Below, in pieces: positions 45,292 to 46,336 of a DNA stretch of 64,000 nucleotides (the stretch's first letter is position 1; each line of letters opens with the position of its first letter). Where the stretch lies: the sequence record NC_042128.1. One strand, given 5' to 3'. Source of the DNA: Escherichia phage RCS47. The position numbers and the translations under genes were made by a program. The notes beneath the pieces are model-generated. The model saw nothing but the letters and a program-made list of their open reading frames with translations. It was not told the origin of the DNA and searched no databases.

Positions 45292-45528
45292 ATGCAGAAC
45301 AATCCGAACAAATGTCGAACGCTATGGGTGCGGTTATATATTTATGCCGTCCTCTGTTTGATTGTGTCACTGGTTCTGTATGTTTGGCTTTTGCCAAATA
45401 TGATCTCATCTAACAGCACAATACTTGTATTGTTGGGAGTCCTTCTCGCGCTCATTTACCCAGCTTTCGCAGTAGTCTTTTTTCGTGAAAAAACCAGGAA
45501 ATTAATTAATGAAAAAAACGTTGATTAG
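45292..45528 (+). CDS. small integral membrane protein
   Basis: 78 aa, two hydrophobic helices; overlaps start of the SPFH lipoprotein gene. Confidence 0.45.
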   Translation: MQNNPNKCRTLWVRLYIYAVLCLIVSLVLYVWLLPNMISSNSTILVLLGVLLALIYPAFAVVFFREKTRKLINEKNVD

Positions 45529-46336
45529 TGCAGCGATTATTTTGGGTTCTTTATGTCTGACCGGATGCGATCGGGTAGAGCCAGGTAACGTAGGGATCAA
45601 AGTAAATAAGCTGGGGGATGATAAAGGTATCGGTGAAGTAGTTGGCGTTGGTCGCTACTGGACAGGCTTGAATACTGAAGTTTATATCTTCCCGACCTTT
45701 AAGCAAATGAAGACATACGATGAGCCGTTCAGCTTCCAGATGAGCGACGGAACAACCATTGGTTACCACATCGGCGTAGCCTACAAGGTTGATCCAGCAA
45801 AAGTCACAACGGTATTTCAGACCTATCGCAAAGGTGTAGATGATATTACTGATACCGATCTACGCCAGAAGGTTGCAGATGCTCTGAACCGGTTAGCCAG
45901 CAAAATGACAACCGACAAATTTATCGACGGTGGCAAATCCGAATTGCTTGATGCAGCCCTTAAAGACATTCAGGAAGAAATGACGCCAATCGGCATTCAG
46001 GTGATGAGCCTCTCTTATGTAGGTAAGCCAGAATACCCGCCAACAGTTATTGACAGTATTAACGCCAAAGTCACGGCAAACCAAAAAACCCTGCAACGCG
46101 AGCAAGAGGTCAAACAACGTGAAGCAGAGGCCAACATGCTGCGCGCGGAAGCTGCCGGACAGGCTGATGCTATTCGCACAAAAGCCCAGGCCGAAGCTGA
46201 TGCCATTCGTTTACGTGGTGAAGCTCTGCGCCAGAACCCCGGTGTTATGGAGTTGGAAGCGATCAACAAATGGAACGGTACATTACCGCAGTATATGACC
46301 AGTAATACCGCTGTTCCGTTTGTTCCGGTGAAATAA
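45509..46336 (+). CDS. SPFH/band-7 (prohibitin-like) domain lipoprotein
   Basis: 275 aa; lipobox LTGC; SPFH-like core followed by Ala/Glu/Arg-rich coiled coil. Confidence 0.6.
   Translation: MKKTLISAAIILGSLCLTGCDRVEPGNVGIKVNKLGDDKGIGEVVGVGRYWTGLNTEVYIFPTFKQMKTYDEPFSFQMSDGTTIGYHIGVAYKVDPAKVTTVFQTYRKGVDDITDTDLRQKVADALNRLASKMTTDKFIDGGKSELLDAALKDIQEEMTPIGIQVMSLSYVGKPEYPPTVIDSINAKVTANQKTLQREQEVKQREAEANMLRAEAAGQADAIRTKAQAEADAIRLRGEALRQNPGVMELEAINKWNGTLPQYMTSNTAVPFVPVK

Follow-up and report, generated by a model that had tools for sequence, protein, structure and literature searches.

A mobile SPFH lipoprotein and membrane hairpin pair in the ban operon of the P1-like phage RCS47, with a proposed scaffold role at the inner membrane

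Escherichia phage RCS47 carries in its ban operon a pair of overlapping genes for a small membrane protein of 78 amino acids and an SPFH/Band-7 lipoprotein of 275 amino acids. The pair lies at positions 45292-46336 (+ strand) of the 64,000-nucleotide stretch of sequence record NC_042128.1 that was analysed here, which is referred to as the window. We consider it probable that these genes form a mobile two-gene module that builds an SPFH scaffold on the periplasmic face of the inner membrane. The SPFH gene itself is already catalogued as a common accessory gene. Two things about it appear undescribed, namely a hairpin partner that is conserved, not of the NfeD type and in some cases fused to it, and the predicted architecture of the pair, which is lipid-anchored and faces the periplasm.

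The gene pair and its junction

The original prediction, made from the letters alone, described a two-helix membrane protein of 78 amino acids overlapping the start of a 275-residue SPFH lipoprotein, and both open reading frames (ORFs) are present where it placed them. They are encoded on the + strand and overlap by 20 nucleotides, and a GGAG is located 7 nucleotides 5' of the ATG of the first ORF. The position of the pair between tRNA genes also holds, with tRNA-Asn and tRNA-Thr on one side (44210-44363) and a tRNA with a CAT anticodon on the other (46364-46439). The parts of the pair are the following.

45292-45528 (+), small membrane protein ORF, ATG start, 78 amino acids, two transmembrane helices
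45488-45518 (+), gene junction with two A-runs, A6 at 45488-45493 and A7 at 45512-45518
45509-46336 (+), SPFH/Band-7 lipoprotein precursor ORF, ATG start, 275 amino acids
45509-45568 (+), lipoprotein signal peptide MKKTLISAAIILGSLCLTG-C, lipobox LTGC, Cys20 codon at 45566-45568, Asp at +2, read from the sequence
45572-46132 (+), SPFH (Band_7) domain, residues 22-208, from the Pfam envelope and the strand and helix elements of the structural model
46040-46234 (+), long helix, residues 178-242, from DSSP on the AlphaFold2 (AF2) model, followed by a short helix and then the C-terminal motif

Indels at the junction among relatives give the 78-residue form with its 20-nucleotide overlap, a 72-residue form with a 1-nucleotide overlap, or an in-frame fusion of 347 residues. 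The fusion, protein P0001, arises in a P1-type element through a deletion of 1 nucleotide in the A7 run that follows the ATG. In the relatives with the 347-residue fusion, the start frame of the lipoprotein itself runs into a stop. Single-base differences in the A-runs could reflect either true phase-like variation or sequencing errors in homopolymers.

An SPFH lipoprotein with remote similarity to HflK and HflC

The 275-residue protein matches Pfam Band_7 (PF01145) with an E-value of 9.7e-31 and 107.6 bits against a cut-off of 23.6. The match covers residues 22-208 and profile positions 2-176 of 176, which bears out the SPFH assignment of the original prediction. The protein also matches PHROG 200 'lipoprotein' over residues 1-274 (E 2.3e-113). 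Database entries for its relatives are labelled as SPFH domain-containing protein, lipoprotein or 'serine protease'. The last label found no support in any profile search that was run, as only Band_7/SPFH and phage 'lipoprotein' families were returned; it presumably comes from the protease-containing long NfeD proteins that adjoin other SPFH genes. The same mislabel is seen in Erwinia phage and Kosakonia entries.

The N-terminus has the layout of a bacterial lipoprotein signal. It begins with MKK and a hydrophobic stretch, and reads MKKTLISAAIILGSLC-LTG-C followed by Asp21, so that the lipobox pattern [LVI][ASTVI][GAS]C ends at Cys20. The signal peptide occurs in 13 variants over 84 loci, while the mature lipoprotein is near constant. 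All 13 variants retain the lipobox and the sequence CDRVEP, and Asp21 is invariant in the enterobacterial copies. The lipobox is also present in most distant SPFH homologues. According to the Lol-avoidance rule of E. coli, which is an enterobacterial rule, Asp at +2 keeps a lipoprotein in the inner membrane.

The AF2 model of the protein has a mean pLDDT of 72.6 and contains a signal helix, an SPFH alpha/beta domain (residues 20-175), one helix of 65 residues (178-242), a short helix and a low-confidence C-terminus. Within the domain, strands (20-94) are followed by helices (96-161) and another strand (163-175). A Foldseek search with this model returned HflK, HflC, prohibitin, erlin, stomatin, flotillin and QmcA with a probability of 1.0 over 260-296 columns; these are the SPFH proteins that have been solved as rings or cages. 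The long helix and the C-terminal region correspond to the cage wall and cap in those assemblies. The C-terminus carries the motif KWNGTLP, and W255, G257 and P260 of this K-W-N-G-x-L-P motif are invariant in 41 diverse homologues.

Among known systems, the E. coli FtsH modulators HflK and HflC (PDB 7vhq, 7vhp, 7wi3, 9cz2) are the closest, being the best sequence and fold matches among solved structures. They share with the lipoprotein an SPFH domain, a long helix, a C-terminal assembly region and the predicted location on the periplasmic side of the inner membrane. Among solved structures, HflK is the nearest in sequence (phmmer, E 2e-4). However, identity is only about 20%, and the NCBIfam scores fall far below the equivalog cut-offs, with 23.3 bits against 159.4 for HflK (TIGR01933) and 24.7 against 134.4 for HflC (TIGR01932). 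The anchor is a lipobox cysteine instead of an N-terminal transmembrane helix, and a single SPFH gene with its own two-helix partner stands in place of the HflK/HflC heteropair. By these comparisons, the lipoprotein is a member of the SPFH superfamily and not an orthologue of HflK or HflC.

This similarity raises the question of whether the lipoprotein is a mimic of HflK/HflC that modulates the host FtsH protease by co-assembling or competing with the HflKC cage, with altered turnover of its substrates. HflK and HflC are also the best NCBIfam hits, and the predicted membrane side and domain order are the same. FtsH/HflKC controls the CII protein of phage lambda, and close copies of the pair occur in lambdoid Stx2 phages. 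Nevertheless, the similarity is remote (20% identity, 23-25 bits against cut-offs of 134-159), and the matches to prohibitin, erlin and stomatin are nearly as good. The family comes with a conserved partner of its own, its phage hosts are as different as Caulobacter and Prevotella, and no CII-type switch is known from P1. We therefore regard FtsH mimicry as unlikely.

The small protein is a predicted hairpin without an NfeD domain

The 78-residue protein contains two hydrophobic segments with 19-residue window maxima of 2.49 and 2.82. Three lysine or arginine residues precede them, none lies in the 9-residue loop (PNMISSNST), and five are found in the C-terminal tail. From this distribution, the protein is predicted to form a hairpin with both termini in the cytoplasm (N-in/C-in). 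Its turn motif is LLPNMISS. It matches PHROG 1130 'membrane protein' over residues 12-76 (E 6.4e-16) and has no match to a Pfam family. Both proteins of the pair are thus clear members of PHROG families (200 and 1130); the entries, in contrast, state no function, and the two families are not linked to each other.

Three types of the small protein, from P1-like phages, P88 and Stx2 phages, are 32-45% identical and have in common the helices and the turn motif L-L-P-x-M-I-S-S...L-V-L-L-G...A...Y-P. Annotations often omit the small upstream ORF. For example, a hairpin ORF of 62 residues upstream of the SPFH gene is missing from the annotation of the Stx2a phage Stx2_EH1910 (positions 3763-3951 of its retrieved locus, L005) and of other Stx2 records.

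The original prediction likened the pair to NfeD-like/SPFH pairs, and this likeness stands for the gene organisation and fails for homology. In the operons QmcA-YbbJ, YqiK-YqiJ and PH1511-PH1510, a membrane-protein gene is likewise tightly linked to an SPFH gene, the two genes are fused in some genomes, and QmcA is among the structural matches of the lipoprotein. A classical NfeD/SPFH operon, in which the small protein would be a short NfeD that regulates the SPFH protein through an NfeD domain, would explain the small membrane gene overlapping the SPFH gene, which recalls yqiJ-yqiK, qmcA-ybbJ and the archaeal PH1510-PH1511. It would also fit the appearance of QmcA, known from the QmcA-YbbJ complex, at rank 32 of the Foldseek matches. 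However, the Pfam search returned no NfeD (PF01957) match at E<=1 for the 78-residue protein, and PF01957 was likewise absent at E<=0.1 from four other partner variants and from four fused homologues, which were searched whole with their N-terminal hairpins. The two helices leave only about 15 residues free at each end, which gives no room for the OB-fold that defines NfeD, and NfeD homology of the small protein was rejected on these two grounds. Furthermore, NfeD-SPFH pairs face the cytoplasm, whereas the SPFH domain here follows a lipoprotein signal and would be exported and lipid-anchored. An NfeD operon is thus extremely improbable.

The size of the small protein, its two helices, its N-in/C-in layout and its charged C-terminus are also found in class II holins, and a weak match to PHROG 565 'holin' was obtained (E 0.099). 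The hairpin could accordingly be imagined as a holin- or antiholin-like protein that times lysis, with the SPFH lipoprotein as its regulator. The PHROG 565 match is not significant, though, and no lysis genes are located near the pair in the window, in P88 or in Stx2 phages. In Dyella, the pair is chromosomal and flanked by housekeeping genes, and the fused forms would tether a holin to a scaffold. A role in lysis timing thus has hardly any probability.

Conservation and fusion of the two partners

An exhaustive search found 2875 representatives of the SPFH family at E<=0.001, 222 of them at E<=1e-30. With 708 clusters of SPFH homologues and 52 clusters of small proteins, of which one extends over at least 1000 contigs, both proteins occur far beyond chance. 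For diverse homologues, 59 genomic loci were retrieved. An alignment of 7 sequences served as the seed for a genome scan; an alignment of 41 homologues was too divergent for this purpose.

Evidence for the pairing comes from a distant set of 48 loci, whose SPFH proteins are 35-50% identical to the query and whose partner ORFs were picked by motif and hydropathy. A two-helix ORF ends between -13 and +44 nucleotides from the SPFH start in 47 of these 48 loci, and the 48th is a fusion. The motif P-x-[LMFIV]-[LIVMFA]-S is present in 45 of the 47 partner ORFs. The hosts include Dyella and other Rhodanobacteraceae, Sutterella, Cupriavidus, Saprospirales, Flavobacterium, Dependentiae and Methylumidiphilus. 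A profile made only from the distant partner ORFs scored 37.0 bits with the 78-residue protein, above all of 2000 layout-preserving shuffles, the best of which reached 29.2 bits and the second 21.3 bits.

Additionally, the two proteins are fused in 15 of the best 150 family representatives (about 10%). In these fusions, the hairpin with its turn motif is followed by a K/R-rich loop, a third hydrophobic segment with a lipobox-like cysteine and then the SPFH domain. One such locus (L132) is a true fusion, as its DNA contains no usable internal start codon. The fusions suggest a topology with the N-terminus inside, the turn outside, the loop inside and the third helix leading out. Such a topology would place the SPFH domain outside the cytoplasm, as the lipoprotein signal of the split forms also indicates. 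By these comparisons, the small protein is a genuine and conserved partner of the SPFH protein.

For this analysis, a hairpin-SPFH module was defined by three elements: the motif P-x-[LMFIV]-[LIVMFA]-S in the turn of a two-helix ORF, and a lipobox and the C-terminal motif K-W-(N/D)-G-x-L-P in the SPFH protein that this ORF directly precedes or to which it is fused. The pair in the window has all three elements, as LLPNMISS, LTGC and KWNGTLP.

An alternative cassette in P1-like phage-plasmids

The window belongs to a P1-like (Punavirus) phage-plasmid, in which dmt lies upstream of the pair and ban and dbn lie downstream. The parts of the locus around the pair are listed here.

43525-43556 (+), bivalent C1 repressor operator overlapping the ban promoters, perfect inverted repeat of ATTGCTCTAATAAATTT and its inverted copy
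44210-44363 (+), tRNA-Asn(GTT) and tRNA-Thr(TGT), from ARAGORN and Rfam, upstream of the pair in the same operon
45267-46354 (no strand assigned), cassette that differs from P1, from blastn of the window against the P1 locus and the P1 annotation
46364-46439 (+), CAT-anticodon tRNA directly 3' of the cassette, Met according to ARAGORN, annotated as tRNA-Ile2 in its P1 counterpart trnI
46719-48089 (+), ban (DnaB-like helicase), downstream in the same operon, from the ORF and the annotation of its P1 and 813R1 counterparts

Positions 44100-46500 share 99.6% identity with Escherichia phage vB_EcoM-813R1 and with several records that bear the name P1. Compared with P1 itself, 43400-44456 and 44630-45266 are 98-99% identical and 46355-46800 is 96% identical, and by blastn the flanks of the cassette range from 95.7 to 99.4% identity. 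Positions 45267-46354 have no counterpart in P1, which carries tciA-tciB-tciC at that place. The pair is therefore an alternative cassette of the ban operon and an exact replacement of P1 tciABC. Both cassettes are non-essential cargo on the same strand of the identical slot. In contrast to this shared position, they show no homology. The tciABC genes encode a TerB-like protein, a small DUF3927 protein and a 35-residue peptide; in profile searches P1 TciA matched TerB and TciB matched DUF3927, and the Band_7 protein and the hairpin of the pair matched neither.

A survey of P1-like phage-plasmids listed tciABC among eight variable regions, 'lost' in nearly half of the elements, and does not mention SPFH (PMC9603915). 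In a CRISPR interference study of P1, tciABC, trnI and ban scored as non-essential (PMC10695390). In PLSDB, 189 plasmids have at least 80% of the SPFH cassette and 191 have at least 80% of tciABC, so the elements that are said to have 'lost' tciABC largely carry the SPFH cassette instead. Almost all carriers are Escherichia plasmids of the non-mobilizable class, and most of the examples listed measure 87-123 kb. A copy at 80% or higher nucleotide identity was found in 460 of 5426 complete E. coli genomes (about 8%), at 201 places on plasmids and 308 on chromosomes. The description of the pair as unusual cargo consequently had to be given up, as it is one of two about equally frequent alleles and homologues of its SPFH protein occur in 390 phage records.

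The cassette contributes only 25 nucleotides of upstream sequence, the GGAG included. The C1 operator and the ban promoters, which correspond to the annotated Obanab/P1ban of P1, are intact about 1.7 kb upstream on the same strand. A consensus promoter scan of 43400-46800 found no site, and it also missed the known ban promoter and is therefore insensitive here. As no promoter-like site was found in this region, the cassette probably depends on transcription from upstream, presumably from the ban promoters.

Distribution in other phages and in bacteria

The pair is found in three unrelated phage backbones, P1-like, P2-like (P88) and Stx2 lambdoid, with overlaps of 1, 4 or 20 nucleotides. The P88 and Stx2 copies are about 86% identical at the DNA level and about 91-93% at the protein level. 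In P88, gp11 'membrane protein' overlaps gp12 'lipoprotein' in the early operon; the hairpin ORF of P88-type loci has 67 residues. In Stx2-converting lambdoid phages, the pair is located between the cI region and xis-int; a two-helix ORF of 62 residues overlaps the start of the lipoprotein, which is labelled 'serine protease', by 4 nucleotides. As judged from these copies, the pair moves as a unit among phages.

With tblastn, the SPFH homologues in phage records include those of virulent phages (Pseudomonas phage TL, Erwinia phiEa104, Klebsiella KpS8) and of large phages (Caulobacter phiCbK, Prevotella Lak megaphages). The homologue stands among early or nucleotide-metabolism genes in four lytic-phage loci (TL, phiEa104, KpS8 and phiCbK). 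The hairpin partner is one gene removed in KpS8, and phiCbK has a different multi-helix membrane protein at that position.

The SPFH-hairpin pair is not exclusively phage-borne. About 20 Dyella-group loci, mostly from Dyella genomes, share homologous DNA on both flanks. The neighbours are genes for ribonucleotide reductase (nrdAB), a hemerythrin, a BlaR1-type peptidase and a MacB-type permease, and none are phage genes. They are unrelated housekeeping genes and give no functional clue.

The carriage of the gene by Stx2 phages of pathogenic E. coli suggests another possible role, that of a lysogenic-conversion factor for the animal host, in which a vesicle-exposed lipoprotein would trigger TLR2. 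The only experimentally studied prophage SPFH protein that the literature search turned up is the 'HflK/C-like' PM0222 of a Pasteurella multocida prophage, which was reported in outer-membrane vesicles and linked to TLR1/2 activation and mouse virulence (PMC9872710). It resembles the lipoprotein as a prophage-borne SPFH protein of a Gram-negative host, a likeness that need not mean homology to the SPFH-hairpin family. Its reported role, however, concerns host inflammation instead of a bacterial membrane function. The family is abundant in virulent phages and soil bacteria, and Asp at +2 argues for inner-membrane retention in E. coli. A conversion factor is thus very improbable.

A proposed scaffold on the periplasmic face of the inner membrane

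In the proposed mechanism, translation of the lipoprotein gene would be coupled to that of the small gene. The lipoprotein would be lipidated at Cys20, retained in the inner membrane by Asp at +2 and exposed to the periplasm. It would thus lie on the same side as HflK/HflC, with the lipid anchor replacing their N-terminal helix. The termini of the hairpin would be cytoplasmic and its P-x-L-I-S turn periplasmic, this turn being its only conserved extramembrane feature. The hairpin would be the dedicated membrane partner on which the SPFH protein docks or which it encloses. Most probably, the two would assemble into an SPFH oligomer, a ring or cage at the periplasmic surface of the inner membrane that encloses or organises a membrane patch. 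As non-essential phage cargo, the module would probably be transcribed with the early genes on derepression and condition the inner membrane of the infected or lysogenic cell.

Several observations weigh against this account. The +2 residue is S, N, E or G in homologues, so localisation may differ between members, or the Asp+2 rule may not be decisive here. The AF2 model was built from a shallow alignment, shows a monomer and has moderate confidence, with a pLDDT below 50 for the C-terminal 20 residues, and oligomerisation is extrapolated from other SPFH proteins. The partner is missing beside the SPFH homologue in the virulent phages TL and phiEa104, which indicates that the SPFH protein can work without it. 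Co-transcription with the ban promoter is not certain, because that promoter is separated from the cassette by a terminator-like hairpin (43717-43746) and by a structured element whose end is at about 45266. Finally, a full-text literature search returned no experimental study of any member of the SPFH-hairpin family.

Among the possible roles of such a scaffold, we would rank first that it conditions or protects the infected cell's inner membrane in a general way, or that it excludes superinfecting phages. Known exclusion proteins are often small inner-membrane proteins or lipoproteins, such as T4 Imm and Sp, P22 SieA, T5 Llp and phi80 Cor. A dedicated exclusion or anti-phage device, in which the scaffold and the hairpin block DNA entry or sequester inner-membrane proteins that another phage needs, is also consistent with the position of the pair as cargo of a variable slot. 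The other allele of this slot is the TerB-like tciABC, and terB-containing ter operons have been implicated in phage inhibition (PMC9603915). The pair, or its SPFH homologue, stands among early genes in P88, Stx2 phages, KpS8, phiEa104 and phiCbK, and the class given for PHROG 1130 is 'moron, auxiliary metabolic gene and host takeover'.

Nevertheless, PADLOC-DB 2.0 gave no match for the SPFH protein and only a noise-level match for the hairpin (PDC-M18B, E 0.023, 12 bits), and membership of a known defence system was rejected for this reason. The syntenic chromosomal pair in about 20 Dyella-group loci is located next to housekeeping genes (nrdAB, hemerythrin), unlike a defence island, and the literature search gave no experimental support. 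A dedicated exclusion device is therefore a possibility to which we give a rather low probability.

The scaffold reading has a more far-reaching version, which we hold only tentatively and consider doubtful as it stands. The pair could be an autonomous membrane-scaffold system, a periplasm-facing and lipid-anchored counterpart of HflK/C with its own client or anchor, which is inherited vertically in Rhodanobacteraceae and has been captured repeatedly by phages of many hosts, strictly virulent ones among them, as an early gene with a role in infection. If this were true, such a role could be, for example, to block the DNA entry of competing phages, to shield the cell from abortive-infection effectors that attack the membrane or to re-tune FtsH. 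The exchange with the TerB-like tciABC would then mean that one envelope-related purpose is shared by both cassettes. Membrane scaffolds of the SPFH type are universal, and their roles in bacteria are poorly defined apart from HflK/C-FtsH. The pair would offer a compact and tractable two-gene system for studying what an SPFH cage does to the inner membrane and why phages want one.

Neighbouring features of the ban operon

The terminator-like element upstream of the tRNA genes has the form of an intrinsic terminator (43714-43746, +), with the hairpin GCCCATCTTCGGGTGGGC followed by T8, and closes the region of the dicF-like element of P1. As it is located between the ban promoter and the tRNA genes, the downstream genes of the operon need read-through or another promoter.

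Between the tRNA genes and the cassette (44364-45266), four paralogous units of about 100-125 nucleotides fold as + strand RNA with a closing stem of about 20 base pairs and a branched interior. Their Z-scores are -4 to -5.5 compared with shuffles, and some compensatory and G-U changes are seen between units. The first unit contains the tRNA T-arm-like sequence GGGTTCGAATCCC. Positions 44630-45266 are 98% identical to a P1 stretch that is annotated with the reverse-strand genes plp and upl. Because these units fold as RNA and the reverse ORFs over 44630-45266 have no Pfam match, plp and upl may be ORFs that lie across the structured-RNA array of the ban operon.

At 45138-45258 (+), a sub-threshold match to Rfam STnc100 was found (38.3 bits, gathering score 47, E about 1e-6). 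The STnc100-like element shares the outer stem UGGUGAAU...CACCGGGAGGCACCCGGCACC, and the U-run that closes it falls right on the cassette junction (about 45266). Such an element, immediately 5' of the small ORF, could act in termination or in processing.

The tRNA/repeat array varies among P1-like phages. The window has one repeat unit of about 174 nucleotides more than P1 (44457-44629), phage Ro157c2YLVW has an extra tRNA-Tyr between tRNA-Asn and tRNA-Thr (positions 3191-3277 of its retrieved locus, L003), and D6 is annotated with tRNA-Ser. The tRNA at 46364-46439 is called Met by ARAGORN; trnI of P1, which is 96% identical, carries the annotation tRNA-Ile2, a type that becomes specific for Ile after lysidine modification, and several phage records give tRNA-Met.

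The dmt gene (40249-43536, +) encodes 1095 residues compared with 754 in P1. An intein that combines a Hint domain with a LAGLIDADG endonuclease accounts for the extra part, at about residues 77-418. It interrupts the C5-cytosine methyltransferase half at the catalytic GGTP-C-Q motif (…GGTP|CFTAGH…VVHN|CQAFS…), and the same 1095-residue form of dmt is present in phage Ro157c2YLVW.

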